Of a DNA stretch of 32,000 nt, positions 451-32,000 are shown one piece after another. Position 1 is the first letter of the stretch; the number at the start of each line of letters is the position of its first letter. The DNA lies in contig NZ_CP021983.2 of the NCBI RefSeq assembly GCF_002075285.3, positions 390,001 to 422,000 on the forward strand, read 5' to 3'. The position numbers were made by a program, and so were the translations under genes. The DNA comes from Halomicronema hongdechloris C2206 (GTDB lineage Bacteria; Cyanobacteriota; Cyanobacteriia; Phormidesmidales; Phormidesmidaceae). The notes beneath the pieces were generated by a model. It saw only the letters and a list, made by a program, of their open reading frames with translations. It had not been told where the DNA came from and searched no databases.

Positions 451-466
451 TATTATCCGGCCCCTT

Positions 467-3249: not shown

Positions 3250-3600
3250 AAACAGTCAAGCCCGTGCTTGATTCGCTCGGGTTGGGGACTTAGCCGACTT
3301 GATTGCTGCTCTATTCAGCCCCGTCCTAATACCATATAACCTCGCCAGTGCTCCAGTAGCCTGTTCTGCTGTTCCCCAAGCCTGACATAATAGGGGACTC
3401 CTACTGATTAGGGGGAAGGGTTGGCGGCAGATTGCCTTAGCTACGATGATTCTGAGAGTTAGCCGAGTACGCCATGGCAGAAGTTGGCTGACCCTTGGGC
3501 TCTGCAGCTCCCTAGCCCTCTGCCACAAATGATGGGAGTTAAACCGGCGCCGCGGTCTACTAGGGCGTGCTGTAATGGAATCGATCATGGGCGAGGGGAT

Positions 3601-3981: not shown

Positions 3982-4129
3982 CTCCCTTCGCCAAATTCTG
4001 TTGGCAATCACTTACCAAATGCTTGCCCAGTGGTGGAAGCGGTGGATAGGTTCATGATTTCGGGCGTTGCTAAGCGCACTAATCTGAAGTTTATTTAGGG
4101 CGACCTACTTAATTAGGTGAGCGACCTAG

Positions 4130-4456
4130 CTAGATATAGGCCGAGATATCTTCGCCACATTCATCTGCCAGATAGCACAGAGCGCGAAAGCGCAGGGCGA
4201 CCAGCTCGTCATACAGAGGGTTGAATTTGCACAATGGCGGAATATGGGCGACCCGATGGCCCAGCAGCCGGATGTCTCGTTCGAAGGGACATTGGGCTGG
4301 GATCAGGCGCACCAGGCGATGGGCTAGACCTGGGGTAGTGACTGTCAGGTTATTCAATCGACGGCGTACAGGATGTAGACAGTCGACCTGCCGCCCATTA
4401 GCAACTGGAGCAACTCCCGATAAGGAGCTGAAAATCGATCCGAGCATCACGTTCAC
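4130..4456 (-). CDS. Small protein resembling the Mo-dependent nitrogenase C-terminal domain family (Mo-nitro_C)
   Basis: The motif CPFERDIRLLG...HIPPLCKFNPLYDELVALRFRALCYLADECGEDI matches my memory of the cyanobacterial Mo-nitro_C family. Confidence 0.45.
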   Translation of the reverse strand: MNVMLGSIFSSLSGVAPVANGRQVDCLHPVRRRLNNLTVTTPGLAHRLVRLIPAQCPFERDIRLLGHRVAHIPPLCKFNPLYDELVALRFRALCYLADECGEDISAYI

Positions 4457-5059
4457 TCATTCTTCTCGAGGTTGGACCATACCGCCCCGACACCCTAAGC
4501 ACGTTGGAGAGGTGTTGGGTGGAGTTTTTTATAAACGGAGCTTGTAAATGAGGTATTTATTATGCTGGCTCTACCATAAAATCTGGCCCTTAACATCGGG
4601 TAAAGCCCTGAAAAAAAAGCCAGCTAGCTGACTAAAGCTCTGGTAAAGCCATAATTTGCACTAGCTTCTTGATCAAAGGGGCGCCTCTATTCTGGGATGG
4701 GTGTTGGCGGACTGGCCTGGGAGGCAACCACTTTTTCAAGTGTCCTGCATTGACGGGTGATCATTTGGTTGAGGGTCATGGTTAGGGCTATTGAGGCAGT
4801 ATTTTCCCCAAAGCGCCCCCTAGATTACTGGGTTACTTCCTGGATATCGGTAACATAGGCTACTGTTTTGGGGTGGTGGTAAGCCGGTGAGCTTCCCTAA
4901 ACGCAGGAGATCGAACAGCTATAGTCACCGCCACAATGCTTTGTGCGGTGGCGAGCCAGTCAGCCTCCCTAGGCTAGGCCATTGGACGATCAACCATGTC
5001 CTAAGCTGACTGGCCAACGCTATATGTCCTTGGCTGACTAGCCAGGGGGCTATGAATAA

Positions 5060-5080
5060 CCCTGGAGCTAAGCTCCAGGG
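5060..5080 (-). terminator. Hairpin downstream of ftsH
   Basis: ccctggagc (5060-5068) pairs with gctccaggg (5072-5080) around a 3-nt loop. It lies 36 nt 3' of the ftsH stop on the minus strand and is followed there by a T-containing ttatt. Confidence 0.4.
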
Positions 5081-5116
5081 TCAGGTCTCTTGCTCTGCAC
5101 GTTCTCTGGGCCGTCT

Positions 5117-7105: not shown

Positions 7106-7364
7106 AACGAAATGCCATAACGTGAGTCTGAACCAGAGAAAAGCTAGTGCGTGCATGCATCCGCAGCCAACACCCCATTGGATGCTGCTAACATTTCTAT
7201 CCTGACTGGAGTTGATCAGCTTGACAGCTACCCATCGATAGATCTTGCCAAACTCGTAGGCGAGCATTGCTGCTCTAGCCGATGACGAGTAGCCCTCCTC
7301 TCACCGCAGTCTCCCAGTGAGTGCGGCCCGGCGGCAGCTGCTCCCGTCCTCATCTGCCCTACAC

Positions 7365-7501
7365 GGGACCCATAGATTTCTCTCTGGGACGCGGTCATTT
7401 TTACCCGGTCCTTGTCCATAGCTGGGCGGGACCCATAGATTTCTCTCTGGGACGCAGTCATTTTTGCCCGGTCCTTGTCTATATCTGGGCGGGACCCATA
7501 G
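7365..7501. repeat. 63-bp tandem repeat, about 2.2 copies
   Basis: Units start at 7365, 7428 and 7491 (the third is a partial gggacccatag). Copies 1 and 2 differ at 4 positions. Three overlapping frames across the two strands are open over it, which argues against coding. Confidence 0.9.
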
Positions 7502-7648
7502 CGCCCGATGGCAGTGTTTGCCCGCGACGGTACTGCTGGCCAACTATCTGGCAACAAAGTCAGGCCAGTATAGTATGCCTTTTGACCGATCTCGCTCGGG
7601 TCACCATTTGGTTCACTGGTAGAGAGGCGTTGCTATCTGGACATCCCG

Positions 7649-7882
7649 ATGCCGACCCATGATCCTGCTAATCCCAATCCTCAGTCTGCGGATACGAATC
7701 CGGAAGACAATGTCGTCGATCCGCGAGATTTGGTCTACAAGGGGGGCTACGATAAGGAGCCTGACAAAATTGTCAACAACCCAGCGGTGACGCCACCGAT
7801 GCCGGAAGATACCCAGACCTCGACGGCCAGCTTTATCTCTGATACCGCCGAGGACGATGAAGCGGAGTGGCTGCTGGATTAA
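7649..7882 (+). CDS. Hypothetical small acidic protein
   Basis: 77-aa ORF with a D/E/P-rich composition and no recognised motif. It is convergent with the pilin-like gene. Confidence 0.35.
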   Translation: MPTHDPANPNPQSADTNPEDNVVDPRDLVYKGGYDKEPDKIVNNPAVTPPMPEDTQTSTASFISDTAEDDEAEWLLD

Positions 7883-10179: not shown

Positions 10180-11931
10180 CTACATGGAGTCACCTCGCTG
10201 CAAGCGAGCCGCTATCTCATAGGTCTGGGTTTGCGATCGCATGGTTGGGGCATGGGCGGCCAGATACCGGGCCGTCGCCACTAAGACATGAATGCCCGCT
10301 TCATGCCCCTGCCAGTGCTGGTACTGCTGTAGCGCCGCTTCCAGGTTTTGGATGGTGTGAAAATCCCGGTCTTCCCGCAGCAGCAAGTTGCCGAGCATTG
10401 CCAACAGTTGCGCCGGGTCGCCGCCGCTGTGGAGATAGGTGCCCACCAGCGTGCTGGCTGCCTGCACCTGTTGCTGACGATTGAGCAAGTCGGGCAGATC
10501 GGCGAGTAAGGCCGCAGGCTCTTCAACCCGGTTGTCTAGATCGGGCAGTCGAGCCGGGGGCATATTCAAGAAGCGATTCAGATAGACCGCCATGGCGGCA
10601 TCGAACACACCCCGCAGCAGCTCCAGGGACGACACCCGCGTCAGCCCCTGATGGACGGCATTGGCAAAGGTAAAGGCATGATGGGCCGTATCCCAATCGC
10701 GGAAGTCATTATTGGTTTGGAACTGGGCAATGCGCCGGGCAGCGGCATAGGCCACCATCCCGGCTAGATCCGCCGGGGAGCAGCCCTGGCCGAGGGTCGC
10801 GAGTAAGGTCGTTGCGATCGCCTGGGGGTCATCCCCCAGCAAGACCGAAACGAGGGAGTCAACGGCATCGTGGATACTAAACTGCTGGGCTTGCCCGGTT
10901 GCGATCGCCTCCGGTAGGGCCTCAAACGTCTGCTCCAGAATGTCTACTAGATCAATCGGGTAGCGCCAGGCATTCGACTCTTCCATGCGCTCGGCACCGG
11001 CATATTCTGAAACCAGGCTGGTCAGCACCTGCTCGGCGTTCTGCCAGTGGACACTATCTAGGGCCTCCAAGGCTTTGTTGGTAAAGTCCAGGGCATGGCC
11101 ACCGTCGATAAAGCGGTGATCGGTGGCGGCCGCAAATAGCATGTCTGCCAGCTGGGGAGGCTCGGCCCCCACCTGCACAGCCGAGGCCAGACAGCGCTCC
11201 GCCCCCTGGGCATCCCGCACCTCAATAAACTGACGGAACCACTGTTTCAGGGTCTGGAAACTGGCCGGCGTATTAGGCAGCGGCTGAATCGTAAATCGAG
11301 GAGGCTTGCCAGCACAGTCCCGCGCCACGGCGGAGAGGCCATGGTACAGCGCCCTGGGCCGATCGCTTGCCTGTAGATGGGGTAGCAACTGCATCATACA
11401 GGTGTGCATGGTCAGCCCTGCCCCCCACCCCTGGCGGCGATAGCGCACGCCAAAGTCCAGCCCGGTCTGAAACGGTTCGGTCGGGTCTACCCCTGCCGCT
11501 AGCTGAGCAATAACCGACTTGGCGATCACCAGGGAAAGGCTCTGCTCTAGCCCATCTACCAGGCGCTGCCGGTGGTAGGCATGGGCATCTGCCGGGGGCG
11601 TGACATCCACCCAGACCACGCCATCTCGCACTTCGACAGGAAAGGCCTGCCCATCGTCGGCCCAGATATCGAAGGTGCCGCCACTAGTGAGGTCGAACCG
11701 GGCATGGTGCCAGTGACAGGTCAAAATGCAGTCTTTAACGCTGCCTTTGTGCAGGGGAAAGCCCATGTGGGGGCAGCGATTGTCGATGGCGTAAATCTGG
11801 CCGTTGTGGTGAAACAGGGCAATGGCATGGCCTTCGGCATGGACGACTTTAACGCCTGCCGCCTCGATTTCTGCAACTTGCGCCACCTGAACCAGGTGTT
11901 TTTGTTGGGTGGGAGTTTGACTGATAACCAT
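10180..11931 (-). CDS. Rieske (2Fe-2S) domain protein with a large uncharacterised C-terminal domain
   Basis: CPHMGFPL...CHWHHARF gives the CxH...CxxH Rieske ligands within the first ~100 aa. GGAGG lies 5 nt upstream of ATG 11931. The remaining ~480 aa are helical-looking with no motif I recognise. Confidence 0.8.
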   Translation of the reverse strand: MVISQTPTQQKHLVQVAQVAEIEAAGVKVVHAEGHAIALFHHNGQIYAIDNRCPHMGFPLHKGSVKDCILTCHWHHARFDLTSGGTFDIWADDGQAFPVEVRDGVVWVDVTPPADAHAYHRQRLVDGLEQSLSLVIAKSVIAQLAAGVDPTEPFQTGLDFGVRYRRQGWGAGLTMHTCMMQLLPHLQASDRPRALYHGLSAVARDCAGKPPRFTIQPLPNTPASFQTLKQWFRQFIEVRDAQGAERCLASAVQVGAEPPQLADMLFAAATDHRFIDGGHALDFTNKALEALDSVHWQNAEQVLTSLVSEYAGAERMEESNAWRYPIDLVDILEQTFEALPEAIATGQAQQFSIHDAVDSLVSVLLGDDPQAIATTLLATLGQGCSPADLAGMVAYAAARRIAQFQTNNDFRDWDTAHHAFTFANAVHQGLTRVSSLELLRGVFDAAMAVYLNRFLNMPPARLPDLDNRVEEPAALLADLPDLLNRQQQVQAASTLVGTYLHSGGDPAQLLAMLGNLLLREDRDFHTIQNLEAALQQYQHWQGHEAGIHVLVATARYLAAHAPTMRSQTQTYEIAARLQRGDSM

Positions 11932-17762: not shown

Positions 17763-18413
17763 ATGGTTGATACTGCATCACGTCCACAAGGTATTGAAAC
17801 CGACACCTGGATACCCGCGACCTGGGAAGCATTTGTGACGCTGTCCAATCGGCCCGGTTTTGATAAAGCTCGGGGCTACTACGACAAGGGGTGGATGCGG
17901 CTTGAGATGGCAGCACTAGGGCCTTGGCATGGGCGGGATAATGCCGTGGTGTTGAAGGTTATTGGTTTGTTTGCTGGGCTGACCAATATCCGAGCCGTCG
18001 AACTCATCAATACTAGTTTTCACAAATCCGGAGAGCGGGAAGCTCAGCCCGATATTGCCTTCTATTTGGGGGAAAGCTTTCAACTGCTACCGAGAACCAA
18101 TCAACCAGTCGATGTTGAAGTCTATGGTGCTCCTCAGCTTGCGGTAGAAATTGCCTCGACCACCTTAGGGGATGATTTAGGCCGAAAACGGTTGCTGTAT
18201 GAGCGGCTGGGAGTGCAGGAGTATTGGGTCGTCAATGTAGCGATGTCGGAGGTTGTCACCTTCGCTGTCGAAAATGGTGGCAGTCGAGAGATTCGAGAGT
18301 CTCAGGTGTTGCCAGGGCTAGCATTGTCGACTGTGGAGGAGGCCATGCAGCGCAGTCAGACTGAGGATGATGGGGCGCTGACTCGGTGGTTAATCCAAAC
18401 GTTTCAAGGGTAG
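17763..18413 (+). CDS. Uma2 (DUF820) family endonuclease
   Basis: 216 aa. The pattern PDIAFYLG...LAVEIASTT...KRLLYERLGVQEYWVVN matches the PD-(D/E)xK Uma2 layout. Confidence 0.8.
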   Translation: MVDTASRPQGIETDTWIPATWEAFVTLSNRPGFDKARGYYDKGWMRLEMAALGPWHGRDNAVVLKVIGLFAGLTNIRAVELINTSFHKSGEREAQPDIAFYLGESFQLLPRTNQPVDVEVYGAPQLAVEIASTTLGDDLGRKRLLYERLGVQEYWVVNVAMSEVVTFAVENGGSREIRESQVLPGLALSTVEEAMQRSQTEDDGALTRWLIQTFQG

Positions 18414-18423
18414 CGATCGCCCT

Positions 18424-19821
18424 ATGTATCCCACCCCCACAGAGCGATTTGACGAGTTTATCAATCACCATCCAGAGAATAAGCTGGAGCTGATAAACGG
18501 TCAGCTGATTGTGGGCAACGCTCTGACAGGCAGTCGATTGCTACTGAGGCAAATTCTGCATGGATGGGGAGCTGAGGCCGCGATCGCCCTTGCTCCGACA
18601 GAAACTTGGCTCTCAGCGCTGGCTGCAAGCTACAATTTGACGCTTCCCAAGGCGACTTCTATCGAGGCACAACTCAACGCCTTGGAAGCACAGACGAAGG
18701 ACTTTGAGTTCACTCCAGAAGACTTATCGGCTGGGGGGACAGAGGCCACCTGGCCGCACCATCGAACGCGCCAAGCCTTGACGATGGCTTTGTTCCGGCT
18801 GGCTGGAAACGTCGGCGGACAGTCCCTAGGGCGGGACTTCGTCATGCGCCTGGGGGACAACGGGTTTACACCAGACTTGGTGTTTTTCAAAAATTCCGGA
18901 TTGAACCGGCTGTATGACGCTTTCATCAGTGGGCCAACAGAACTCGTCGTTGAAGTGCTGATGCCAGGGCACGAAGAGGCCGATTGCACTACTAAGTACG
19001 AGTCCTACCAAGCCGCCGGAGTACCTGAGTATTGGCTAATCGATCCGAGTGCGGAACAGGTGACGTTTTATCGACTCATAGAGGGTCGCTATCAGTTACA
19101 GTCGCCAGAGGCAGACGGCGCTTACCGCCCTAGCAGCATTCCAGGGTTAGCGTTTCGAGCGGCAGAGCTGTGGCAGGAAGAGGAGCCGCATCCGCTGGAG
19201 TCTTCGCTGTTTGTTGTGGAGCAGCGGGTCGAGGGATTTGAGCGGCAATCAGAGGACGAGGGACCCCATTGGGGATCGCTATTGTTTATTCCGAATATTC
19301 AGATCGATCCGGTGCCGATTAGCTTCGAGGAATTCATCAGTTGGGCTCCCAGAGCCAAATTTGAGTTTATCCAGGGAAAGCCGCTGATTGAATCGACCCC
19401 TGGTACGCGCAATGTGCTGGCGATGTTGTTAATGACCTTTGGTCTGGCCAGTGTGGTGAAGCTATTGCCACCCCAAGCTTGGATTCAGGGATTGCGGCAG
19501 CGTCTGGATTGGGAACGCCAGGATGCTGATCGCAAAGCCGAGTGGTGGGCGATCGCCCGTAAAGCAGCAGAGAAACTCCGCACTGATTTTTCGGTGGGGC
19601 GCTTGGGAGTCATTGGTGACTTGACGATGCCACAACCGTTGAATTATTGGTCGGGCATCACTCTAGTCTATTGGGAGAAACTGGAGAATTCCTGGCAAGC
19701 CTATGAGGTGCTCCGCGACATCGACCCGGATCGCCACATTGTTGATTTACGCCAAGTAGACGAGCGTTGGCTCACAGCGGATCAACTCTGGCAAATTGAC
19801 CGTTATCTAGTGGAGTTGTGA
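18424..19821 (+). CDS. Multi-domain Uma2-related protein (465 aa)
   Basis: Uma2 core TPDLVFF...ELVVEVLMPGHEEADCTTKYESYQAAGVPEYWLIDP. The N-terminal module FDEFINHHPENKLELINGQLIVG recurs at aa ~300 as FEEFISWAPRAKFEFIQGKPLIE. The gap to the preceding Uma2 gene is only 10 nt. Confidence 0.7.
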   Translation: MYPTPTERFDEFINHHPENKLELINGQLIVGNALTGSRLLLRQILHGWGAEAAIALAPTETWLSALAASYNLTLPKATSIEAQLNALEAQTKDFEFTPEDLSAGGTEATWPHHRTRQALTMALFRLAGNVGGQSLGRDFVMRLGDNGFTPDLVFFKNSGLNRLYDAFISGPTELVVEVLMPGHEEADCTTKYESYQAAGVPEYWLIDPSAEQVTFYRLIEGRYQLQSPEADGAYRPSSIPGLAFRAAELWQEEEPHPLESSLFVVEQRVEGFERQSEDEGPHWGSLLFIPNIQIDPVPISFEEFISWAPRAKFEFIQGKPLIESTPGTRNVLAMLLMTFGLASVVKLLPPQAWIQGLRQRLDWERQDADRKAEWWAIARKAAEKLRTDFSVGRLGVIGDLTMPQPLNYWSGITLVYWEKLENSWQAYEVLRDIDPDRHIVDLRQVDERWLTADQLWQIDRYLVEL

Positions 19822-20320: not shown

Positions 20321-20407
20321 GGTAAATGAGGGAGTAGATGGATTGATGGATGAATGGGGTCAGACGATTAGAATTGGTGTAGAGGATTGTCGAGCAAGGT
20401 TGCTGGC

Positions 20408-20989
20408 ATGATGTCTGGTCTGCCGATGGTTTTAAGTCTGGATCAGGTTGAATTGACGGATGAGCAATTCTACCGATTATGCCTGGCGAATCCGAATACA
20501 CCCCTGGAACGATCAGCTTCGGGAGCGTTGGTCATTATGTCACCCGTAGGGGGAGAAAGCGGGGAACGAGAAGCTGATTTGATCACAGACTTAGCGCTTT
20601 GGAATCGACAGATTAAATTAGGCAAGGTTTTTAGCTCATCGACGTTGTTCAAACTACCGGGAGGCGGGGATCGATCTCCTGATGCTGCTTGGATAGAAAA
20701 AACGCGTTGGAATGCATTATCTCCCGAAGAGAAAGCCGGGTTTCCACCGATATGCCCTGATTTCGTCATTGAGCTTCGTTCTAAAACGGATGCTTTGCCT
20801 CCTTTACGGGACAAGATGGAGGAGTATCTAGCCAGTGGTTTACGGTTGGGCTGGTTGATTAATCCCCAGGGACAAGAAGTCGAGGTTTATCGACCGGGGG
20901 CAATCGTCAAAAAAGTGCCCTTTCCAGCCCGTTTATCCGGGGAAGACGTCTTGCCGGGGTTTAAGCTGACTTGGCCTTTGCCGGATTAG
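20408..20989 (+). CDS. Uma2 (DUF820) family endonuclease
   Basis: GGESGEREADL...SPDAAWI...PDFVIELRSKTD...KMEEYLASGLRLGWLINP gives the Uma2 PD-(D/E)xK pattern. I take the first ATG, at 20408. Confidence 0.8.
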   Translation: MMSGLPMVLSLDQVELTDEQFYRLCLANPNTPLERSASGALVIMSPVGGESGEREADLITDLALWNRQIKLGKVFSSSTLFKLPGGGDRSPDAAWIEKTRWNALSPEEKAGFPPICPDFVIELRSKTDALPPLRDKMEEYLASGLRLGWLINPQGQEVEVYRPGAIVKKVPFPARLSGEDVLPGFKLTWPLPD

Positions 20990-22476: not shown

Positions 22477-22803
22477 ATGGGGATGAAGCATGGCCGGGTG
22501 AGCCCGAATCTGGACCAGCACATGGCCGATGAGATGAATTGCAAAGGGAATTACTACTGCTCGCGGTTGAGGGCGGCGTGTGATTTTAGGATTGTGGATT
22601 TGCCGAGTGACGAGTTGGTGGCGTGGATTGTGGCGCAGGGATTGCCGTTCGACTCGCTGTATTTTTACGGGGCAGAGCGGCCCATTTATATCAGCTACGG
22701 GCCGCAGCATAAGCACGATATTTGGACTTTTACGGAAAAGGGAACGCCGACACGCAAGGGGCTGAAGGCGTGGCGCGATCGCCCCACATCAAGCAAGGGC
22801 TAA
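22477..22803 (+). CDS. Hypothetical protein
   Basis: The ORF reads protein-like from ATG 22477 (MGMKHGRVSPNLDQHMADEMNCKGNYYCSR...). I recognise no family. It overlaps the xisI stop by 4 nt, convergently. Confidence 0.4.
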   Translation: MGMKHGRVSPNLDQHMADEMNCKGNYYCSRLRAACDFRIVDLPSDELVAWIVAQGLPFDSLYFYGAERPIYISYGPQHKHDIWTFTEKGTPTRKGLKAWRDRPTSSKG

Positions 22804-23135
22804 CTAACGGCAAATTCGGTGAACTGACGCTTGAAGGGGGAGTGGAAACCCAGCACGATGTCGTGCTTAGGCACGCCTCGTTCCACAAGTTCGAGAGCAA
22901 TGCCGCCTTCGGTGCCGTCGTGCTGAATCCAGATTTTGCCGTCTTTGATGTCGAGGTGCAGCACGCAGCCGTAGACTCGGCGTTTATTGGACCAACCGAC
23001 GTGGACGACCTGGTAGCGATCGCGCTGGGTATCGAAAATTAGCTCAGTTTCTAGATCGGGGTTATTGAAGTCAACTTTGCTGTAGTCTTCCAGAAGGTCT
23101 TGGACGAGTTGACGGTAGCTGTCTACGCTTGCCAT
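22800..23135 (-). CDS. xisI: XisI protein
   Basis: YRQLVQDLLEDY...DRYQVVHVGW...YGCVLHLDIKDGKIWIQHDGTE...GVPKHDIVLGFH is the XisI family signature as I remember it. Confidence 0.85.
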   Translation of the reverse strand: MASVDSYRQLVQDLLEDYSKVDFNNPDLETELIFDTQRDRYQVVHVGWSNKRRVYGCVLHLDIKDGKIWIQHDGTEGGIALELVERGVPKHDIVLGFHSPFKRQFTEFAVS

Positions 23136-23539
23136 TTCACGATCACCTCCTCCTCTAGATCATAAATCAGTAATCTGACTTGATAGCGCTCAATCAACCT
23201 CCGAGGCAGCTCCAGCCGGAAGAACTCCCTTTCAGCATCAACTGGAATGGCTAGAAAAAGAGTGCGATCAGGCTCTTCTTCTTCTAGTGCAAGTTGATAT
23301 TTCAGAAATTGTCCTAAAGCGGCGTTGAATTCCGTCGTGGCTGAAGGGCCAATGAAACTTTTGATTTCGACGGCAATTTTCTCATCACCCCGATCAGCCG
23401 CAAGAATGCGCTCGGCCCCCAGGTCAACATACATATCGACCCCACCAAAACTGAGGAACAGCGGATCATGGGTGATGGTCCAACCGTCTTTTTCGAGGGC
23501 GCGCTTGGCAGCATTGTGGAAAATGTCTTTAGCGGCCAT
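23123..23539 (-). CDS. xisH: XisH protein
   Basis: AKDIFHNAAKRALEKDGWTITHDPL...YVDLGAERILAA...IAVEIKSF is typical of XisH. It overlaps xisI by 13 nt in the usual xisH-xisI order. Confidence 0.85.
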   Translation of the reverse strand: MAAKDIFHNAAKRALEKDGWTITHDPLFLSFGGVDMYVDLGAERILAADRGDEKIAVEIKSFIGPSATTEFNAALGQFLKYQLALEEEEPDRTLFLAIPVDAEREFFRLELPRRLIERYQVRLLIYDLEEEVIVKWQA

Positions 23540-23561: not shown

Positions 23562-23780
23562 CTAGCGTTTCCGCATCAGCGTGGTGGGATAGCAGTCAAT
23601 CACGAAGCTGCGCATGTAGCTCCCTTTTGAATCCGATTCCAGGAGTCCTTCATAGGTTTCTTTGGGAACTTCGGAGTATTGGTAGGTTTTTCCGGAGTTA
23701 AAGATAACCAGTAGGGTTTCGTTGTCTTCATCGTAGCCAAAGGCTTGAATCATGCTGGATTCCACAAACTGTAACTCCAT
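23562..23780 (-). CDS. KTSC domain-containing protein
   Basis: SSMIQAFGYDEDNETLLVIFNSGKTYQYSEVPKETYEGLLESDSKGSYMRSFV matches the KTSC domain pattern. Confidence 0.75.
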   Translation of the reverse strand: MELQFVESSMIQAFGYDEDNETLLVIFNSGKTYQYSEVPKETYEGLLESDSKGSYMRSFVIDCYPTTLMRKR

Positions 23781-23855: not shown

Positions 23856-24044
23856 TCAATGGATTTGAAGCGGCGGCTGGTTGAGCACCAGCAATTCTGG
23901 AACCATGCCCCGGAGTTTCTGCTGTAGCTTGTCAAAGGACTCAGCTTCTGTGACGAGGCCAGGTACGTCTTCGCTAGTTGCGACCCAGACCGCTGCGTCA
24001 GCATCCCAAAAGGCATTGACCTGGAAAACGGTTGCTGATGTCAT
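23856..24044 (-). CDS. DUF1902 domain protein (HicB-like antitoxin fold family)
   Basis: FWDADAAVWVATSEDVPGLVTEAESFDKLQQKLRGMVPELLVLN matches DUF1902 as I remember it. Confidence 0.65.
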   Translation of the reverse strand: MTSATVFQVNAFWDADAAVWVATSEDVPGLVTEAESFDKLQQKLRGMVPELLVLNQPPLQIH

Positions 24045-24164: not shown

Positions 24165-24314
24165 CTAACGTTTCCGCATGAGGGCGCAGGGATAACAGTC
24201 AATCATAAGGCTCCGCATGTAGCTGCCTTTAGAATCTGCTGCCAACAGTTCCTCATAGGTTTCTTGGGGAACCTCCGAATACTGGTAGGTTTTGCCGGAA
24301 TTGAAGATAACCAT
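24165..24314 (-). pseudogene. 5'-truncated second copy of the KTSC gene
   Basis: It translates to MVIFNSGKTYQYSEVPQETYEELLAADSKGSYMRSLMIDCYPCALMRKR*, collinear with the C-terminal 50 aa of the 23562-23780 protein. Nucleotide similarity ends abruptly near 24315. Confidence 0.8.
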
Positions 24315-24316
24315 GA

Positions 24317-24745
24317 GTCATGGGTAGGATGGGCAAAGCGCAGCGTGCCCATCAGACTCTCTGCCCAGTCAACAATTTGCCATCTCTATGGACTACCGAC
24401 GCGATTACGCAAGGGTTTTACCAAGCCGACTGGGGAACCCATGTGGAGGCTATTGCGGCTTTTGATGATATGGAATTGGAATAGCAAGGCGGAGCATGGT
24501 ATTCGAAGGGTTTGATGGGCACGGGCAGAGCCCTTTGCCCATCAAACTACTGGGACTGGCTCAACTACGACTATTATCAGCGTGAGCAGATTTGCTCGAT
24601 TGGTTCAGGCGCAGTTGAATCAGGCATTAAACAGATTGGTCGCCGCATCAAAATCTCGGGGGCTCAGTGGAGCGAAGACAACGTTCCACAAGTCTTAGCT
24701 CATCGCTGCACTTACCTAAATGGCATGATTGGGAAGCCAAGGTGA
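24317..24745 (+). pseudogene. Transposase remnant (C-terminal motif resembles ISKra4-type transposases) with an in-frame stop
   Basis: YYQREQICSIGSGAVESGIKQIGRRIKISGAQWSEDNVPQVLAHRCTYLNG (24512-24745) is a transposase C-terminal pattern. The same frame is open back to 24317 but is interrupted by TAG at 24482-24484. No N-terminal catalytic region is present. Confidence 0.5.
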
Positions 24746-25131
24746 CATGCTCCCGATACTTTGTGCGGTTTCTTGTATCGAAACCAACAATTTGCTAGTC
24801 GTCTGACAGTATAGGGACCAATCACACACCCTAAACAGTCCTAGAGAAAGGGCTTTCAGAGATCTCTTGACATATCTTTAGAAAAATAATTCTGATCCGG
24901 AATAGCAAGGTTCGGCTGTGTAGAGGAAAACAGCGATCAAAAATCTGCTGTTACAGATATTTCTAATCCTAACAGCCCGGACAATTTTCTAAGCAAGCCC
25001 TGAAACCCTGGATTTCTCGTTCGCTCGACTGCACTAGAGAGGGTTGAAAGCCGCATTCTGGTGTTAGCAGTCAAGAACTATCCGGAGCATTGTAATCCAA
25101 GTCAGAAGTCTATAGCCTACAGGTAATTGTC

Positions 25132-26622
25132 ATGAGTTTCTGCATCAACCCCCAGTGCTCGAAACCTCAAAATTCCCGACAGCCCCTTTTTTGCGAATCA
25201 TGTGGCTCAGATCTACTGCTTGATGGTCGCTATCGAGTCATTGAGCGTCTCGGCAGAGGTGGCTTTGCTGACACGTATGAGGTTTTTGAATTTGGTACAC
25301 CCAAGATTCTGAAAGTTCTACATCATAAAGAACCCAAGGCACTTGAACTGTTCAAACGGGAGTTCGATGTACTAAGTCGTCTCAATCATCCCGGCATTCC
25401 CAAAGTAGACCCTGACGCATATTTTACGTTTATGCCAAAAGGCTCTTTAGAAGTTCTTCATTGCTTTGTAATGGAGAAAATTGAGGGAATGGACCTTGAG
25501 AAATATATGGAAAAACGTGGCAATCAACCTATTTCAGAAAAGACGGGGTTGGCTTGGCTAGAGCAAATCGTTGAAATTTTGCAGGTTATTCACGAGCAAG
25601 ACTTTCTGCATCGCGATATCAAGCCAAGTAACATCATCTTAAAACCTGATGGCCAATTGGCTCTGATCGACTTTGGTGCCGTCCGGGAAATGAGTCAAAC
25701 CTACATGCAAAAGTCTAAAATCACGGCCATCTCATCGGCAGGCTATACACCTCCCGAGCAAGTCAATGGCAAGGCCATTATACAATCTGATTTTTTCGCT
25801 TTAGGTAGAACCTTTGTCTTCCTCTTTACTGGAAAAGAACCTGGAGCTTTTAATTTAGATCCCCGAACAGCAGAACTTGTCTGGCAGGATGATGCCAAGC
25901 AAATTTCAGAGAGAGTCATCGGCATCATTGATCTAATGATGGCTTATATTCCAGACAACAGACCTGCTCTAGCATCAGACGTTCTTCAGGAAATCGAATC
26001 ACCAAAAATATCTCAGAAAATCGAAACGCCCCATTCAAAAAACATACAAAAGCAAGCTTTTTGGCGGAGGTTTCCAGCCGCAGTAATCGATTATGCTGCT
26101 ATAGCGATACTCGGAGTAATTCCTTACAGTATACTCTATGAAGTTTTAGATCGAATTAATCCATATCCTTCATTCCCATATGGCCTGTTCTCTGATGAAG
26201 TAGATCCTATTGAAGAGCAGCTGCATAACCAGCAAGTTGATTTGCACTGGCAGCTAGACAATATTTTTCAATGGATAAGTTTGGTTTCTACATATCTAAT
26301 TGTCGGGGCCGTATACCACGCCTTGACGGAAAGTTCCACGCGGCAAGCAAGCCCAGGGAAAAGACTTTTTAAAGTACATTTGAGAAATGAAATTGGGAAT
26401 CATTTAGGTTTTATGAAAGCTTTAGCAAGAGCTATTCTTAAACAAATATTCTGGTTGCTTTTTGTCCTTTATCCTATTGCATCAGCCACCTATGTTTATG
26501 GCAGCCTTTACTGGTTTAGCCTTGCTGCTTTTCTGTTTGTGGTTATTTCTTTGCTGATCACTCTTCGAAACAAGAACTTTTTGTACGATTTGGCATCCAG
26601 AACGAAAGTTCTGATCAAATAA
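25132..26622 (+). CDS. Ser/Thr protein kinase with an N-terminal 4-Cys zinc ribbon and a C-terminal RDD-family membrane domain
   Basis: The ribbon is CINPQC...CESCG. The kinase motifs are GRGGFADTY (G-loop), ILKVL (Lys), HRDIKPSNIIL, DFGAVR and GYTPPEQ. The C-terminus has RDD hallmarks (RRFPAAVIDY ... SPGKRLFKVHL ... LYDLASRTKVL) with hydrophobic helices. Confidence 0.9.
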   Translation: MSFCINPQCSKPQNSRQPLFCESCGSDLLLDGRYRVIERLGRGGFADTYEVFEFGTPKILKVLHHKEPKALELFKREFDVLSRLNHPGIPKVDPDAYFTFMPKGSLEVLHCFVMEKIEGMDLEKYMEKRGNQPISEKTGLAWLEQIVEILQVIHEQDFLHRDIKPSNIILKPDGQLALIDFGAVREMSQTYMQKSKITAISSAGYTPPEQVNGKAIIQSDFFALGRTFVFLFTGKEPGAFNLDPRTAELVWQDDAKQISERVIGIIDLMMAYIPDNRPALASDVLQEIESPKISQKIETPHSKNIQKQAFWRRFPAAVIDYAAIAILGVIPYSILYEVLDRINPYPSFPYGLFSDEVDPIEEQLHNQQVDLHWQLDNIFQWISLVSTYLIVGAVYHALTESSTRQASPGKRLFKVHLRNEIGNHLGFMKALARAILKQIFWLLFVLYPIASATYVYGSLYWFSLAAFLFVVISLLITLRNKNFLYDLASRTKVLIK

Positions 26623-26884
26623 AAACGTTTAGAATCGAGGATATATATCCAAATGATATTATCTCTGAACTGTCGTGCTTGGAACCCATTTTAACTTTTA
26701 GATTTCACCTAAAACGCAAAAGCTTACAGGAAAAGGTTATGAGCCTCTGCATCAACCCCCAATGCACACATCCTGAAAATTCTCGGCAGCCCCTTTTTTG
26801 TGAATCCTGCGGATCAGAATTGTTGCTCGATGGTCGCTATCGAGTGCTTCAGTATTTGGGCGGAGGCGGTTTCGCTGATGTCTA

Positions 26885-28031
26885 TAGCAATCCCAGTTGA
26901 TTTATGAACAAGGTGAATATTCTTCTATTTTAGAAAAATCGAACTTTTGATGATCTATAAAGAACTCAAACAGATACTTTACAGCGGGGAAAGAACGACA
27001 CAACCTCCAAAATCTTCTCAATGAATTTTTGGCTTGTAACCAAACATCTTCCACTGGATTTTGTTCTGGTGAATTGGGTGCAAATAGAATACATTTGAAT
27101 TGCCATTCTGTCTCTTCTTTCCCATGATTGACTGTAGCTAAAAAATCTTTGATCTCTTGTGACTTATGATAACTAGCGCCATCCCAAATTAATGCGATTT
27201 GCTTCCCAGGATTTTGTTCCTGCAAGTACTTCATAAAAGCAACTGTATTCTCTCCATTCCCTTTCTCGTAAGGATGCAAAATAAATTCTTTTGTTTGATA
27301 GTTTAATGCGCCATAATATGTTTGCCTGATTCTCTCGTTTGTAATAGGGATTTCGATTCGCATATCTGTCTTGCCCCAGACATATCCACAAACATCACCC
27401 CAAAGGAGATGACACTCATCCAAAAAAAGTACAATCAATTCCCCAGACTCAATTTTGAACTGGTTTTGACGGATAAATCCTTGGATTTCTTCTCTTTTTT
27501 TTTGACTAGAGCTGGATCAGATTTTGGGTTGGTTTTTTGAGATTTCTTCCAACTAATACCTGCTTCCGAAAAAAGTGTATAGTAGCTTTGCTTAGACTTG
27601 TAAATCACATCATAATGTTCATCTAAATATGAAACTAATTCATCAAAGTTCCAGTAGTTTCTGGTTCTCAGCCACGAGATAATTTCTGTACGATCATCTG
27701 GGGTTAGGTAACTTTTTGATCCTTGGTAGCCGAGTTTAATACCTTCAATGCCTTGTGCTTCGAATCTGTTCTTCCAATATGTAATAAAAGACTTGTTTAT
27801 TACCAGAAATTTGGTAATCTTAAAATATGGCTCACCCTCCAATGCCATTTTTACAGCCAATGCTCGCTTAAGCTCTCTTGAATCAGGATTACTACTTATA
27901 AAGTCTGATAGAATAGCACGATTATCTACTTTTTGTTGGTGTTCTAATTGAAAACTATTCATGAGTACAACTGTATTGACAGCTTGATGATATTTATATA
28001 CTACCCATTCTAAACTCATTTAGGGTTGCTA
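26885..28031 (-). mobile_element. IS630-family insertion sequence (1147 bp) with a TA target-site duplication
   Basis: Imperfect terminal inverted repeats: tagcaatcccagttga... on the left, and tagcaaccctaaatga... as the reverse complement of the right end. TA is at 26883-26884 and 28032-28033. The transposase ORFs fill the element. Boundaries are good to about 2 nt. Confidence 0.85.
26902..28019 (-). CDS. IS630-family transposase in two frames (orfA 27435-28019, orfB 26902-27438)
   Basis: orfA is an HTH-like N-terminal part and orfB a DDE-type part (LFLDECHLLWGD...IWDGASYHKS...FAPNSPEQNPVEDVW). The orfB frame stays open upstream to an A9 run (27495-27503), where a -1 shift gives ...VKKKREEIQGFIRQNQFKIESGELIVLFLDE. 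Confidence 0.8.
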
Positions 28032-29489
28032 TATGAGGTTGTAGAGTTTGGCGAAGCAAAGGTTCTTAAAGTTCTAAGTTACAAAGCTGAAAATAAGGAA
28101 GAAGCACTTCCAAAATTATTAGAACTCTTTAAGAGAGAATATGAGGTACTAAGCCGTTTGAATAATGATGGCATTCCAAAAGTAGATCCAGGTGATTATT
28201 TCATATTTACTCTAAGGGGATCTTCAGACGTCTTCCATTGCTTTGCGATGGAGAAAATTGAAGGCATGGACCTTGAAAAATATATGAGAAATCGCGGTAA
28301 TAAACCTATTTCAGAAAAGACAAGTTTGGCTTGGCTTGAACAGATTATTGGAATTCTGAAGGTTATCCACGATCAGAACTTCCTTCACAGAGATATCAAA
28401 CCTAGCAACATCATCTTAAAACCTGAGGGGGAGTTAGTTTTGATTGACTTCGGTGCTGTTCGAGAAATGAGCCAAACATATGCAATAAAATCTACAGGTA
28501 CATTCGTTTGCTCGCTTGGTTATACATCACCAGAGCAACAAACAAGTAAGGCGATACCTCAGTCTGATTTTTTCGCATTAGGCAGAACCTTCGTATTCCT
28601 TCTTACTGGAAAGGAAATAAAAGATCTTGAACTTGATGAAACAGCAAAGGAGCTAATCTGGCAAGAGCATGCTATGCAGATCTCAGAAAGGCTTATCAGA
28701 ATTATTGACTCAATGGTGGCATATGCTCCAGCTAAAAGGCCAAGTAGTGCAGAAGATATCATTCATGCCTTAGAGAGTATTTCCAAAAAGCCTTCTCCAA
28801 AAGGACAATCTAATTCGAAGCCCTATAAGACTAATCTGAAGCCCTATAAGACAATAAGAAAAGATATTTATAAAAGAGTTGTAGCATTTGTGCTCGACTA
28901 CTTCATGATAGGGAGTTTATTTGTCGGTATTGCATATTTTTTCTTCCACGAAGCACTATTGAACGAATTTCATGACCCTTTGTGGCTTATATATCTAGGT
29001 TTCCCTGTAATTCTTGGGGTTAGCTTCGTGGGGAATGTTTTCGACGATGGTGGCTATTTATTTGTCTGGCCATTTCCATTCTTTTTTATGCTTTTTGTTT
29101 TCGCCTATCCAATATTTTCAGAAAACTCGAAAGCGATGGGAACTCTAGGGAAAAGTATAGTTGGATTGAAAGTATTAAGAGTTGATCTTAAGAAAGCATC
29201 TAAATTGCAGATATGGTTTAGGACGACACTTAAATTTTTATACTCTATTTATATCGGCGGCTCTTTTTTGTTTTTCATCCCCGCAGTTATTCAAGACTTT
29301 GGAGAGAAATTAAGAGAACCTTCACCCAGAAGTTCAGCGGCGATGCTATTGGGCTGTGTGTGGTTAATTTCGACCCTTGTATCACTCAAACCATTAGTTT
29401 CCGGTGGAAGACTTATTCATGATATTGTTTCCGGAACACTGGTTGTGTCAAGAAAGAAGTAAGCTGAAAGACCACTTTCAGAACAAAAT

Positions 29490-30068
29490 ATGGCTATTAC
29501 TCTGAATTTGATTCATAAGAGTTTAAATGCTCAAGCTGCCACATCTTGGGATTTTGATACTAAGAGAAACAACTCCTCGATAATTATTGGTCGAGATTCG
29601 AGTTCTTGTCATGTTCATCTCAAAGACCTTTCTGTAGCCAAAATACACGCCTCAATATTTTTCAAGGCTGACTTTAATGGATACTACATTCATAACTTGC
29701 AGCCATTAAATCCAATCTCTATCGATGGAGCAGTTTTAATTCAAGGCGAAGCTCGACTTTGGCAAGGGAGTACTATTCAACTCGGTAACTCCACATTATT
29801 AGTTGAAAAACTCAAACTCTCATCGAATAAAGCGATCTCTAGCCAAACACCCAATCGTAATTCCCTCTCTACAAATTCTCCAGCGCGGTTGATTACCCCT
29901 TCTCAATTGTCCTCATCACCACCCACGCCTCAGCCTACCCAAGAACACGGCCTTCAGTGCCCTAAATGCCAAACGATCCATCCCTTAACTAGTCAGAATG
30001 TATCTTGTCATATTTGCGGCCATTTCTTGGCAGATGCTGATAGCGTCTTGATATCTCCCAAGCACTGA
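29490..30068 (+). CDS. FHA domain protein with a C-terminal 4-Cys zinc ribbon
   Basis: The FHA pattern is IIIGRDSSSCHVHLKDLSVAKIHASIFF...IHNLQPLNPISIDG...GSTIQLGNSTLLV. A S/P/T/Q-rich linker follows, then CPKC-x13-CHIC. It starts 27 nt after the kinase 2 stop. Confidence 0.8.
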   Translation: MAITLNLIHKSLNAQAATSWDFDTKRNNSSIIIGRDSSSCHVHLKDLSVAKIHASIFFKADFNGYYIHNLQPLNPISIDGAVLIQGEARLWQGSTIQLGNSTLLVEKLKLSSNKAISSQTPNRNSLSTNSPARLITPSQLSSSPPTPQPTQEHGLQCPKCQTIHPLTSQNVSCHICGHFLADADSVLISPKH

Positions 30069-30083
30069 GAAGGTGAGTAAATC

Positions 30084-32000
30084 ATGCCTCCCTTTCCCCT
30101 TAAAATTCGACTTACTTGGAAGGATAGCGTTACCCAAGATACTCGAAATCCGCTTCTCAGCTTACCCATTGCACTGGGAAGCGAATTCTCAGCCATGCCA
30201 GCAAATTTAGGGCAGTTGGCAGTTTCACGCATGACATTTCGAGATCCGATCGCCTCCAAATTTCATGCCTTTATTTATTTAGAGAACAATCAACCTGTCA
30301 TCATTGATCAAAATACGCCTGCTGGAACCTGGATCAACAACGTTAGAGTTCAAAAACATATTCTCCGAGATCACGACGTTATTTGCCTGGGGAATCAAGA
30401 GATTCGCGTCCGCTTGGTTTCTCAGGCTTCCTCGCCAACATCTGCCAGTTATCAATGCGCAAACGTTCCTCTCAATCCGCCAACGTCTCAACCTCAGACC
30501 AAACCTAAATTTCCACCTGCGGCCTTCAAACAAGCTGAGTATGTTTCGCTTGACTACCTGGAGGAGACGGGGCGATTCAACCCCAGAAAAGATCAGTTCG
30601 ACTACGCTGCCATTGGCGCAGGGCTGGGCAGTTACATTTGGGTAGACTTTCTTCGTATCTTTGGGGTGAAAGCAGAACGCATTGTGGCGTTGGGTACTCA
30701 GGATAAGCCCTATGCCCGATATCAACAGTTGTGCCTGAATTCTCAAATTCCCCCTCACGAAAGACTACGCTCTAACTCTGACTCTTGCCCAGACAACATT
30801 TGGGGGTGGCCCAGCTATGCCCTGAGAGAGTCCTGGCAGGATTTCTGGAAAGGACGTGTAAACCATACTCTCGAATCTCTCTGGCAAGTTTTTTCTGAAC
30901 CCGTTCTTGCCGAAACTTATACGCCAAAATCCGGGAATGTTTTCAAGTCCATTGACCGAGAAGCGAACCGGATTGGATGGTCAGACATTTTTCGGCATGG
31001 CAGTGTCCGCGCCATTCGCAAAATGAGTGATGGCAGATATGCCATTGCCTATTCCCAAGGAAAAGGCCGATATGGTTTTGTAGTGGCGAAACACATTCAT
31101 CTATCAACAGGGTATCCCGGCATCCGACTGTTGAAACACTTGAAAGAATATCGAGATAAAACAAAGGATCTCAAATCTGTGGTTAATGCTTACGAGTCTC
31201 ACGAACATATCTATGACTCTCTAGTTGAGCAAGGCGGTACTGTGCTGATTCAGGGCCGAGGCATTGTTGCCTCCAGAATTCTTCAACGGATTTATGAGAC
31301 TTGCCAGAAAAGTTCTCACCGTATAGAAGTGATCCACATGATGCGGCGACCTATTGGCAGGAATGAGGGAAATAAATTTGGTCTAGCGCAGCGCTCAGTC
31401 AGCAATCACTTTGAATTACAACCATTCAACTGGCCGAAAGCTTGTTGGGGAGGAGACCTCCGGGACGTGTTGGAGAAGGCTAGTGACTCGGAAAGAACTC
31501 AACTCCTCAAAGCTTGGGGTGGCACAACTACTGCTGATCGCCGTGATTGGCAAAGGATCATTGCTTCTGGACTCCGAGATCAATGGTATCGGCCTAAATT
31601 TGGTTCCGTGAAAGAAGTTGAGCCTGCTGGTAGGCAGCTTAAAGTTACATATTCCGAAGTTGAAGGTGGCAAAGTTCAGGGAGTTGCCACTCGGGAAGTA
31701 GACTTCATCATTGACGCTACTGGTTTAGAAGCTGATTTGGAAGTGAGTCCTCTCTTAAAGGATTTAATTGATTGCTACAGCTTGCAACTCCTTGATAACG
31801 GACGATTCAAAATCTCGAACGAATTTGAAATTGCTGAGATGTGTTCCAAGCAGACGGGCCAGCAACCAGGGCATATGTATGCCTCTGGTGTAATCACACT
31901 AGGAGGACCGTACGCGGCTGTAGACAGTTTCTTAGGGTTGCAATATGGAGCTCTTCGCTCTATAGATAGCCTGGTAAAAAAACGGGCACCTGGTCTGCGT
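30084..32000 (+). CDS. FHA domain fused to a flavoprotein-like (FAD/NAD(P)-binding) oxidoreductase domain; the 3' end lies outside the window
   Basis: I translated 639 codons by hand with no stop, from ATG 30084 (in-frame TAA two codons upstream, aaggtgag RBS-like) to base 32000. This ORF is not in the supplied track. The FHA region is aa 1-110 (SKFHAFIYL...DQNTPAGTWINN...ICLGNQEIRV), followed by a P/S/T/Q linker. Then come DYAAIGAGLGSY, VLIQGRGIVASRILQRI (GxGxxA) and VDFIIDATGLEAD (ATG motif). Confidence 0.8.
   Translation, partial: MPPFPLKIRLTWKDSVTQDTRNPLLSLPIALGSEFSAMPANLGQLAVSRMTFRDPIASKFHAFIYLENNQPVIIDQNTPAGTWINNVRVQKHILRDHDVICLGNQEIRVRLVSQASSPTSASYQCANVPLNPPTSQPQTKPKFPPAAFKQAEYVSLDYLEETGRFNPRKDQFDYAAIGAGLGSYIWVDFLRIFGVKAERIVALGTQDKPYARYQQLCLNSQIPPHERLRSNSDSCPDNIWGWPSYALRESWQDFWKGRVNHTLESLWQVFSEPVLAETYTPKSGNVFKSIDREANRIGWSDIFRHGSVRAIRKMSDGRYAIAYSQGKGRYGFVVAKHIHLSTGYPGIRLLKHLKEYRDKTKDLKSVVNAYESHEHIYDSLVEQGGTVLIQGRGIVASRILQRIYETCQKSSHRIEVIHMMRRPIGRNEGNKFGLAQRSVSNHFELQPFNWPKACWGGDLRDVLEKASDSERTQLLKAWGGTTTADRRDWQRIIASGLRDQWYRPKFGSVKEVEPAGRQLKVTYSEVEGGKVQGVATREVDFIIDATGLEADLEVSPLLKDLIDCYSLQLLDNGRFKISNEFEIAEMCSKQTGQQPGHMYASGVITLGGPYAAVDSFLGLQYGALRSIDSLVKKRAPGLR

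Follow-up and report, generated by a model that had tools for sequence, protein, structure and literature searches.

In Mycobacterium tuberculosis the gene of the membrane Hanks-type kinase PknF lies directly upstream of the gene of Rv1747, an FHA-bearing effector, and phosphorylation is reported to be a positive regulator of this effector (PMC3138270). In the actinobacteria the small stand-alone FHA proteins GarA and OdhI act as phosphothreonine-dependent switches on metabolic enzymes. The present analysis concerns kinase and FHA genes of the cyanobacterium Halomicronema hongdechloris C2206, which lie in a stretch of 32,000 nucleotides (NZ_CP021983.2, 390,001-422,000; hereafter the window). 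The block under study runs from about 24.5 kb to the window end and carries two genes of Hanks-type Ser/Thr kinases, K1 and K2, followed by the genes of two FHA proteins, FHA1 and FHA2, the second with a flavoprotein-like C-terminal domain. We hold it moderately probable that in this compositionally foreign block, marked by insertion sequences (IS), a lineage-specific pair of duplicated kinases has been joined to a widely conserved FHA1-FHA2 operon.

The likeness to PknF-Rv1747 lies in the position of a kinase next to an FHA-effector fusion, which is the arrangement through which K1 and K2 would act on FHA2. The mycobacterial effector is, however, an ABC transporter whose two FHA domains lie on a single chain, while here two separate FHA proteins and a flavoenzyme-like effector are encoded, and the adjacency of kinase and effector is sporadic in our case (6 of 84 loci). 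When PDB sequences were searched with the FHA2 family, its FHA domain matched GarA and OdhI best. FHA1 differs from them by its C-terminal Cys4 zinc ribbon and by the canonical Ser, which is Ala in the window; a phospho-acceptor motif at the N-terminus was not found in it. The closest relatives of the kinases are the cyanobacterial RDD-domain Ser/Thr kinases with the NCBIfam '4-Cys prefix' (e.g. Tery_2609), from which K1 and the restored K2 show no architectural difference, being merely a diverged, lineage-specific tandem pair with one IS-disrupted member. RDD was listed among the accessory domains of cyanobacterial kinases in a 2007 survey, in which the 4-Cys/kinase/RDD type had already been catalogued (PMC2176072).

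Structurally, the FHA2 model is most similar to the N-hydroxylating flavin monooxygenases PvdA, SidA, KtzI and DfoA (class B), with which FHA2 shares the order of a FAD-type glycine motif, an ATG motif, an NADPH-type GxGxxA and a second ATG motif. FHA2 differs from these enzymes by large invariant insertions, by the fusion to an N-terminal FHA domain and by a small membrane-protein neighbour, and it is found without siderophore or biosynthetic gene context. A FAD-dependent monooxygenase and an FHA domain are also joined in one chain in zeaxanthin epoxidase of plants and algae, where the FHA domain is C-terminal and the enzyme is of class A, p-hydroxybenzoate-hydroxylase-like. Both are flavoprotein/FHA fusions, but in FHA2 the FHA domain is N-terminal and the fold is a class-B-like two-Rossmann one, and no homology is implied. 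To our knowledge, the Hanks kinases of cyanobacteria number in the dozens and their FHA proteins are numerous, but very few kinase-reader-effector chains are known among them.

Conservation of the FHA1-FHA2 operon

For each GTDB species one genome was scanned by pattern for relatives of FHA2, which gave at least 579 loci. Neighbourhoods were counted in the best 80 of these by all-against-all clustering of open reading frames (ORFs), and the kinase survey was made on 84 loci. All of the best 80 loci are cyanobacterial or come from unclassified metagenome-assembled genomes (MAGs), with Nostocales, Oscillatoriales, Leptolyngbya-like lineages, Acaryochloris and some unicellular forms represented. 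An FHA1 orthologue (about 190 amino acids, FHA plus Cys4 zinc ribbon) lies upstream of FHA2 on the same strand in 73 of the 80, at a median distance of 120 bp, and at least five of the seven loci without it start too near a contig edge to show one. Downstream of FHA2, also on the same strand, a hydrophobic membrane protein of about 140 amino acids is encoded in at least 45 of the 80 loci, and the same order of FHA1, FHA2 and small protein was observed in four further neighbourhoods of closest homologues. No relative of FHA2 was found on cyanobacterial plasmids or in the viral contigs of IMG/VR. The FHA pair is a chromosomal, syntenic and near-universal operon of filamentous cyanobacteria. Its orthologues are present in Nostoc and related strains, which are genetically tractable.

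In 53 of the 80 loci the FHA pair is preceded, on its own strand, by a gene of endonuclease V (nfi, PF04493), and none is found at that position in the window. This association may reflect functional coupling or inherited synteny, and the sample of 80 loci is rich in Nostocales.

The family extends beyond these operons. When 1.84 billion representatives were searched exhaustively with HMMER, only 383 clusters were returned at E<=1e-3, including versions of about 500 amino acids which have no FHA domain and which gave no Pfam match. Downstream of three FHA-less homologues, P0290 and P0305 from metagenomic or MAG contexts and one (locus L089) from Nonomuraea gerenzanensis, a homologue of the small membrane protein is encoded, and the motifs GRxQTR, RWDxDWP and WRxxGG of the small protein are common to these contexts. 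The Nonomuraea homologue keeps most of the flavoprotein motifs, with AVGY in place of ATGY and DCTGL in place of DATGL. Since an FHA-less flavoprotein with the same membrane partner occurs in Actinomycetota and other bacteria, the deep unit would consist of the flavoprotein and the membrane protein, to which the cyanobacteria would have added the N-terminal FHA domain and FHA1. In the Nonomuraea locus (NZ_LT559118.1) the FHA-less homologue, 35.6% identical, occupies 5899-7416 and the membrane-protein homologue about 7420-7832 of the extracted neighbourhood. This replicon of 11.85 Mb is labelled 'plasmid I' in PLSDB, carries 10 annotated features and looks like a mislabelled chromosome.

FHA1 and FHA2 of the window

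FHA1 (29490..30068, plus strand) begins 27 nt after K2 and encodes 192 amino acids, comprising an N-terminal FHA domain, a Pro/Ser-rich linker and a C-terminal CxxC...CxxC zinc ribbon, of which three Cys residues are kept in 74/74 aligned sequences and one in 73/74. FHA2 (30084..32000, plus strand) begins 15 nt after FHA1, and the window contains the first 639 of its 659 residues, the stop codon lying about 63 nt beyond the window end. The complete protein is XM38_003990 (659 amino acids, 100% match), in which the N-terminal FHA domain is followed by a disordered linker at about 114-140 and by a two-Rossmann flavoprotein-like domain of about 500 residues. The Pfam FHA profile (PF00498, cutoff 20.7) matches FHA1 with 44.8 and FHA2 with 41.2 bits.

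The Arg, Ser and Asn of FHA domains contact the phosphopeptide (PMC4037201). The canonical residues scored in our alignments were Gly, Arg, Ser, His and Asn, and the full set of five is present in orthologues elsewhere and incomplete in both window proteins. In FHA1 of the window the corresponding residues are G34, R35, A50, H53 and N74; position 50, the Ser of SxxH, is Ser in 73/73 orthologues, and the window alone has Ala (GCC) there. In case of FHA2 they are G32, S33, S58, H61 and N85. Since β3 of the FHA2 model comprises residues 29-32, G32 and residue 33 represent the Gly-Arg pair, and residue 33, which is Ser (AGC) in the window, is Arg in 118/118 other homologues with a residue at this column. 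The Arg next to the canonical Ser (R59, Ser+1) is likewise replaced by Lys uniquely in the window. The FHA domain of the window FHA2 is recognised by Pfam at E 2.5e-10 (41 bits), the best family member at E 8e-30.

A general degeneration of the window FHA proteins was considered and rejected. Their deviation counts at conserved columns are high, but other Leptolyngbya-type sequences show comparable ones, and only the losses of canonical residues are unique. These losses in the readers, together with the IS in K2, suggest that the phospho-input to the window copy is weakened or being lost. With its changes of Arg to Ser and of Ser to Ala, the H. hongdechloris copy provides naturally occurring 'reader-dead' variants which can be compared with the orthologues.

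Fold and motifs of the FHA2 C-terminal domain

In searches of Pfam (E<=0.01), NCBIfam, PADLOC and PDB profiles FHA2 matched FHA only. When the Pfam search was relaxed to E 5 for 24 family members, no K_oxygenase, FMO or Pyr_redox match appeared, and FAD_oxidored was matched weakly, at E 0.015, in 4 of the 24. The alignment of these 24 diverse members has a mean column identity of 59% and contains four invariant motifs, GAGLGS (178-183), ATGY (341-344), GRGIVASR (391-398) and DATGL (544-548), the order of which is, as we take it, that of flavoproteins with two dinucleotide-binding domains. It also contains long, invariant, family-specific insertions or loops, namely RLRSNSDSCPDNIWGWP, QPFNWPKACWGG and WGGTTTADR.

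An AlphaFold2 model of FHA2 was built on the family alignment (mean pLDDT 71.5, pTM 0.60). The top 30 Foldseek hits of this model are PvdA and SidA, at E about 1e-15, and KtzI and DfoA are also among its best PDB matches. These enzymes are N-hydroxylases of ornithine, lysine or diamines, and they match with E 1e-15 to 1e-13, a probability of 1.00, a target-normalised TM of 0.54-0.61, 12-16% identity and a root-mean-square deviation (rmsd) of about 11 Å. The designation of FHA2 as a flavoprotein holds at the level of predicted fold and motifs, with family membership unsupported, and its C-terminal domain belongs to no described family.

The retention of the motifs bears on the alternative that this domain is a catalytically dead Rossmann scaffold, which would hold FHA-bound phosphoproteins at the small membrane protein. 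Its first glycine motif reads GxGxGS instead of the textbook GxGxxG, the insertions RLRSNSDSCPDNIWGWP, QPFNWPKACWGG and WGGTTTADR are modelled at low confidence and could be matched to no known motif of the N-hydroxylating monooxygenases, and the sequence searches linked the domain to oxidoreductases in Pfam or PDB only through the weak FAD_oxidored hits. However, all four motif blocks are invariant and stand in the expected order in 24 diverse sequences, and most of them are also present in the FHA-less Nonomuraea homologue; such conservation would be unusual for a dead enzyme. A scaffold of this kind is thus improbable.

The kinases K1 and K2 and their linkage to the FHA pair

K1 (25132..26622, plus strand) is an intact, membrane-anchored Hanks-type Ser/Thr kinase of 496 amino acids, and GenBank lists a protein of H. 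hongdechloris C2206 with 100% identity to it. An N-terminal 4-Cys zinc-ribbon prefix (4Cys_prefix_kin, NCBIfam NF045510, 34.3 bits, cutoff 24) precedes the kinase domain at 34-284, a short linker and a C-terminal RDD domain, and the hydropathy profile has at least three hydrophobic segments (314-340, 434-452 and 454-481). The profile scores are 107.1 bits for Pkinase (PF00069, gathering cutoff 31.7) and 52.5 bits for RDD (PF06271, cutoff 24.1) in K1, and 112.2 and 36.9 bits, respectively, in the restored K2. The motifs GRGGFA, ILKVL with the catalytic Lys, HRDIKPSN, DFG and TPPE are all present in the translation, and K1 looks catalytically competent by this measure.

The corresponding motifs of K2 (GGGGFA, VLKVL, HRDIKPSN, DFG and SPE) are equally recognisable, nonetheless the gene is disrupted. 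K2 spans 26739-29462 on the plus strand as a Pkinase plus RDD gene and is interrupted after codon 49 by an element of 1,147 bp, so that a 5' fragment (26739..26884) with the 4-Cys prefix and the glycine loop, ending in ...GGFADV, is separated from a 3' fragment (28034..29462) with the rest of the kinase domain, a linker containing a tandem KPYKT duplication, and the RDD domain. The element (26885..28031, minus strand) is bounded by the imperfect terminal inverted repeats TAGCAATCCC and TAGCAACCCT and by a TA target-site duplication at 26883-26884 and 28032-28033. It carries orfA (27435-28019) with a helix-turn-helix (HTH) domain (Pfam HTH_33) and the overlapping orfB (26902-27438) with DDE_3. 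Its blastn hits, at 65-70% DNA identity, are annotated IS630-family transposases from plasmids of Nostoc and Planktothrix, and all the marks of the IS630 family, DDE_3 with an N-terminal HTH, inverted repeats and the TA duplication, were found in it. In silico excision of the element and of one TA restored the sequence ...GGFADVYEVVEFG... and an unbroken Pkinase plus RDD ORF of 524 amino acids. Since the precise excision restores the ORF, the insertion brought no other lesion. K2 is a pseudogene, inactivated by a precise IS630-family insertion. In GenBank part of its 3' piece is annotated as a protein of 398 amino acids (P0408), which is 100% identical over 76% of the restored K2.

K1 and the restored K2 are 62% identical over their first 340-360 residues or so, a part which comprises the prefix, the kinase domain and the linker. 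In the membrane domains the two proteins have diverged. They are mutually closest, other homologues being 36-59% identical, and those which cover most of the length reaching at most about 49%; thus they are lineage-specific tandem duplicates. The 4-Cys/Pkinase/RDD architecture is common to most of the cyanobacterial homologues listed, which show 41-49% full-length identity and are annotated as 'RDD family protein' or 'protein kinase'. The closest full-length homologue, P0124 (L081, 364-3682), adjoins a McrBC restriction system and a second kinase with a GUN4 domain, and no FHA genes were present in its neighbourhood, a short contig and the only context of an RDD-kinase homologue that was viewed. 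It is a single case in which such a kinase lies close to a defence gene. A duplication of 21 bp in tandem at 28810-28852 gives the juxtamembrane linker of K2 the peptide KPYKTN-LKPYKT with a Thr in each copy; speculatively, this repeat could be a candidate phospho-acceptor or FHA-docking motif.

The occurrence of kinases around the FHA pair was surveyed by tblastn with K1 and by a hidden Markov model built from 40 kinase domains. A Hanks kinase was found anywhere in the neighbourhood (about 10 kb) in 7 of the 84 loci and within 3 kb in 6, and the density of kinase ORFs around the pair was 0.74 per 100 kb. For comparison, the genome of Anabaena PCC 7120 measures about 7 Mb. About 50 kinases are listed for this strain (PMC2176072), and 0.74 per 100 kb is about the chance level for a genome with that number. 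The kinases which do adjoin the pair elsewhere are of different types, with ANF-receptor, GUN4 or FGE-sulfatase domains, and sometimes lie on the opposite strand, and no locus combines two RDD kinases with FHA1-FHA2.

The single informative exception is L001, a locus of a Leptolyngbyaceae MAG whose FHA2 homologue has the top score. Next to its FHA1, on the upstream side and at the place taken by K2 in the window, an ORF of 110 amino acids (4881-5213) consists of a 4-Cys prefix, glycine loop and catalytic Lys region, 63% identical to K1 1-73, fused to an RDD-like C-terminal tail. Judged from its sequence, this ORF is an internally deleted remnant of a K1-type kinase. The arrangement kinase-FHA1-FHA2 may be ancestral to a small sub-clade or to the donor, with the kinase decayed in both descendants.

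Composition of the block

At its left edge the block is bordered by a transposase remnant (24264..24745, plus strand) made up of two short ORFs in different frames. Pfam gave no match in this remnant, but 24512-24745 corresponds to the C-terminal 57 or so residues of an ISKra4-family transposase (NCBIfam NF033572 transpos_ISKra4, E 2.2e-22, profile positions 364-420 of 422). This remnant is the only feature of the visible left border, with no tRNA or integrase seen there; tRNA and Rfam scans of the window found nothing, and the right border lies outside the window.

In 1-kb windows the GC content is 35.7-48% after 24.5 kb as against 50-66% before it. The individual genes have 41.7% (K1), 37.9% (3' part of K2), 41.6% (FHA1) and 47.3% (FHA2), compared with 55.6% for 1-24108, and the GC content at third codon positions (GC3) is 34-43% in the genes of the block versus about 55% in the backbone. 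The tetranucleotide L1 distance to the backbone is 0.48-0.63 for the block and 0.17-0.27 for backbone windows, and the correlation of tetranucleotide z-scores with the backbone is 0.11-0.26 versus 0.41-0.62. The strongest argument for foreign composition is comparative. In the 80 other loci the GC content of FHA2 exceeds that of its flanks by 0.4 to 8.5 points (median 4.4), unlike the window, where FHA2 lies 8.3 points below the backbone.

The HIP1 octamer GCGATCGC occurs 20 times, every copy at or before 24108, with a chance expectation of about 0.5 over the whole window. Its absence alone is weak evidence of transfer, because 1-6750, a backbone stretch of about 55% GC, is also free of HIP1, and it was rejected as a standalone test of horizontal gene transfer. 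The density of this octamer is very uneven in the H. hongdechloris genome: the genes of 1-6750 look housekeeping (ABC-2 permeases, FtsH), and 22.2-24.1 kb holds 8 copies in 1.9 kb.

Foreign composition together with IS material at the flank and inside makes a horizontal acquisition plausible, and the block has probably been acquired in this way. No homologue is very close: the best full-length identity of FHA2 to any homologue is 58%, and the highest partial alignments reach 63-64%.

Most of the anatomy described by the first-pass annotation, made from the letters of the window, could be confirmed. Its four co-directional genes with their coordinates and short gaps agree with the ORF map, both FHA proteins carry the domain, the zinc ribbon of the first is a Cys4 one, and the fourth gene indeed leaves its last 20 codons beyond 32000. 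The AT-rich character of the block was borne out by windowed GC and by tetranucleotides, the transposase stub at the border and the IS inside proved to be ISKra4 and IS630-family material, and the suspected horizontal acquisition is supported by the composition. Other statements needed correction. Both kinases contain Pkinase and RDD, as the membrane-anchored Hanks kinases described, but one of them is a pseudogene; the flavoprotein stands as fold and motifs, but not as a member of an oxidoreductase sequence family, Pyr_redox being absent even at the most permissive threshold; and the count of about 20 HIP1 sites upstream was exact at 20, but the HIP1-free stretch of the block is not unique.

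Discussion

According to the explanation favoured here, K1 and K2 would have arisen by tandem duplication of a common cyanobacterial 4-Cys/Hanks/RDD kinase, K2 being broken afterwards by the IS630-family insertion. FHA1 and FHA2 would be the first two genes of an ancient cyanobacterial operon, and the gene of a four-helix membrane protein of about 140 amino acids would lie just past the window end. FHA2 would be a two-Rossmann enzyme of the FAD/NAD(P)H type acting at the membrane with this small partner. By analogy with PknF-Rv1747 and GarA/OdhI, docking of the FHA domains on phosphothreonine produced by Hanks kinases would gate either the activity of the flavoenzyme or its recruitment to the membrane, with K1, and formerly K2, as plausible local phospho-inputs which are not obligatory. 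Tentatively, and with some doubt, we further propose that FHA1, FHA2 and the membrane protein form an undescribed phosphothreonine-gated flavin oxidoreductase or monooxygenase system, spread over at least 579 cyanobacterial species and built on a cross-phylum core, flavoprotein plus membrane partner, for which Pfam has no family, and that the window copy is a xenologue which is losing its phospho-input.

Several observations weigh against this explanation. A kinase stands beside the pair in four lineages (the window, L001, L006 and L085), and 7 of 11 kinase ORFs lie within 3 kb, which leaves room for a loose functional link of kinases to the pair. The model of FHA2 is of moderate confidence, and with an rmsd of about 11 Å and 12-16% identity the term monooxygenase is a statement about the predicted fold, not about function. 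The window ends before the FHA2 stop codon, thus the gene of the membrane partner and the right border of the block are outside it. Any donor would be a relative of the host, with no close donor in the databases (best full-length identity 58%), and in the family alignment shared indels group the window FHA2 with Phormidesmis/Leptolyngbya-type sequences, which we take to be the host's own taxonomic neighbourhood. The losses of canonical residues could be compensated: in FHA1 a new Ser stands two positions before the lost one, and in FHA2 the invariant R49 is retained. Finally, searches of the literature library for FHA-flavoproteins and for cyanobacterial FHA proteins found neither experiment nor publication on this family.

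The first-pass annotation had proposed that the four genes form one mobile phospho-signalling or anti-phage module, in which the kinases sense and phosphorylate, the FHA proteins read and the flavoenzyme is the effector. We regard this as very unlikely. The genes are co-directional and only 15-116 nt apart, and the foreign composition spans all four of them, but among the 84 loci a kinase within 3 kb is no more frequent than the background density would give. From K1 to FHA2 no plus-strand terminator-like site was detected, in a promoter and terminator scan which found fewer sites than shuffled controls and is hence uninformative on operon structure. The remnant of a same-type kinase at the same position in L001, and the kinases adjacent to the pair in L006 and L085, would fit a module; against this, the adjacent kinases are of different types and sometimes on the opposite strand, and the FHA-adjacent kinase is inactivated in both the window and L001. 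The pair itself has a housekeeping-like synteny, with nfi upstream and the membrane partner downstream, and is absent from cyanobacterial plasmids and viral contigs. The annotation had itself stated that a module would be refuted if homologues of the four genes never co-localise in other genomes. This was the outcome for the kinases, while FHA1 and FHA2 do occur together in 73 of the 80 loci.

A role in defence, offered in the same annotation as speculation, did not find support either. PADLOC matched K1 nearly end to end with the PD-T4-6 profile PDLC04051 (E 3.8e-135, residues 1-467) and gave no match for FHA1 and FHA2. PD-T4-6 is a single-gene anti-phage kinase, and no defence-gene context specific to K1 is present. 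Its profiles also pick out a kinase gene which all the Streptococcus thermophilus genomes analysed possess and which gave only a very mild phenotype (PMC11514479). As an identity for K1 the match was judged non-specific, the profile set covering generic Hanks kinases and matching conserved chromosomal ones. The neighbouring Uma2, XisH/XisI and DUF1902 genes are small and common in cyanobacteria, and none is a recognised defence system. The four genes stand together by local accident, which should save work on a supposed defence system, and the unit worth studying is the conserved FHA-flavoprotein-membrane operon.

It would also be conceivable that the locus is native, with no transfer. The kinases would then have been duplicated locally, and the decaying region, with selection relaxed, would have drifted towards AT, which would account for the low GC and the lack of HIP1. 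Signs of decay are indeed present (the IS in K2, the lost FHA residues, and an FHA1 among the most divergent orthologues), but FHA2 keeps nearly all the family-invariant residues, its 12 deviations in 224 columns indicating purifying selection. FHA2 has the clade-specific indels of the Phormidesmis/Leptolyngbya-type sequences P0002, P0009 and P0020, a foreign donor closer than 58% identity is lacking, neither tRNA nor integrase marks the visible border, and 6.7 kb of normal-GC backbone is HIP1-free too. However, a GC3 of 34-43% over about 5.5 kb of intact ORFs, compared with about 55%, is hard to reach by drift without stop codons, the whole tetranucleotide signature differs beyond the GC content, and in all the 80 other genomes the GC of FHA2 is at or above that of its flanks. 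A native origin is therefore unlikely.

Other features of the window

Immediately to the left of the block several small accessory genes lie on the minus strand, coding for XisI (22800-23135), XisH (23123-23539), a KTSC-domain protein (23562-23780) and a DUF1902 protein (23856-24044); they correspond to the nuclease/TA-rich region of the first-pass annotation. Upstream of XisH/XisI three ORFs of the Uma2 family ('putative restriction endonuclease', PF05685) are found within 3.3 kb, at 17763-18413, 18424-19821 and 20387-20989. An Uma2 gene is also present near the FHA2 homologues of L085 and L087, which probably reflects the abundance of Uma2 in cyanobacteria. A tandem repeat of 63 bp (7364-7501, 2.2 copies, 94% match) is located between genes, beside the 5' end of the minus-strand ftsH. 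At 10180-11931, on the minus strand, a protein of 583 amino acids is encoded, in which an N-terminal Rieske [2Fe-2S] domain (14-108) is followed by about 470 further residues without a Pfam match.

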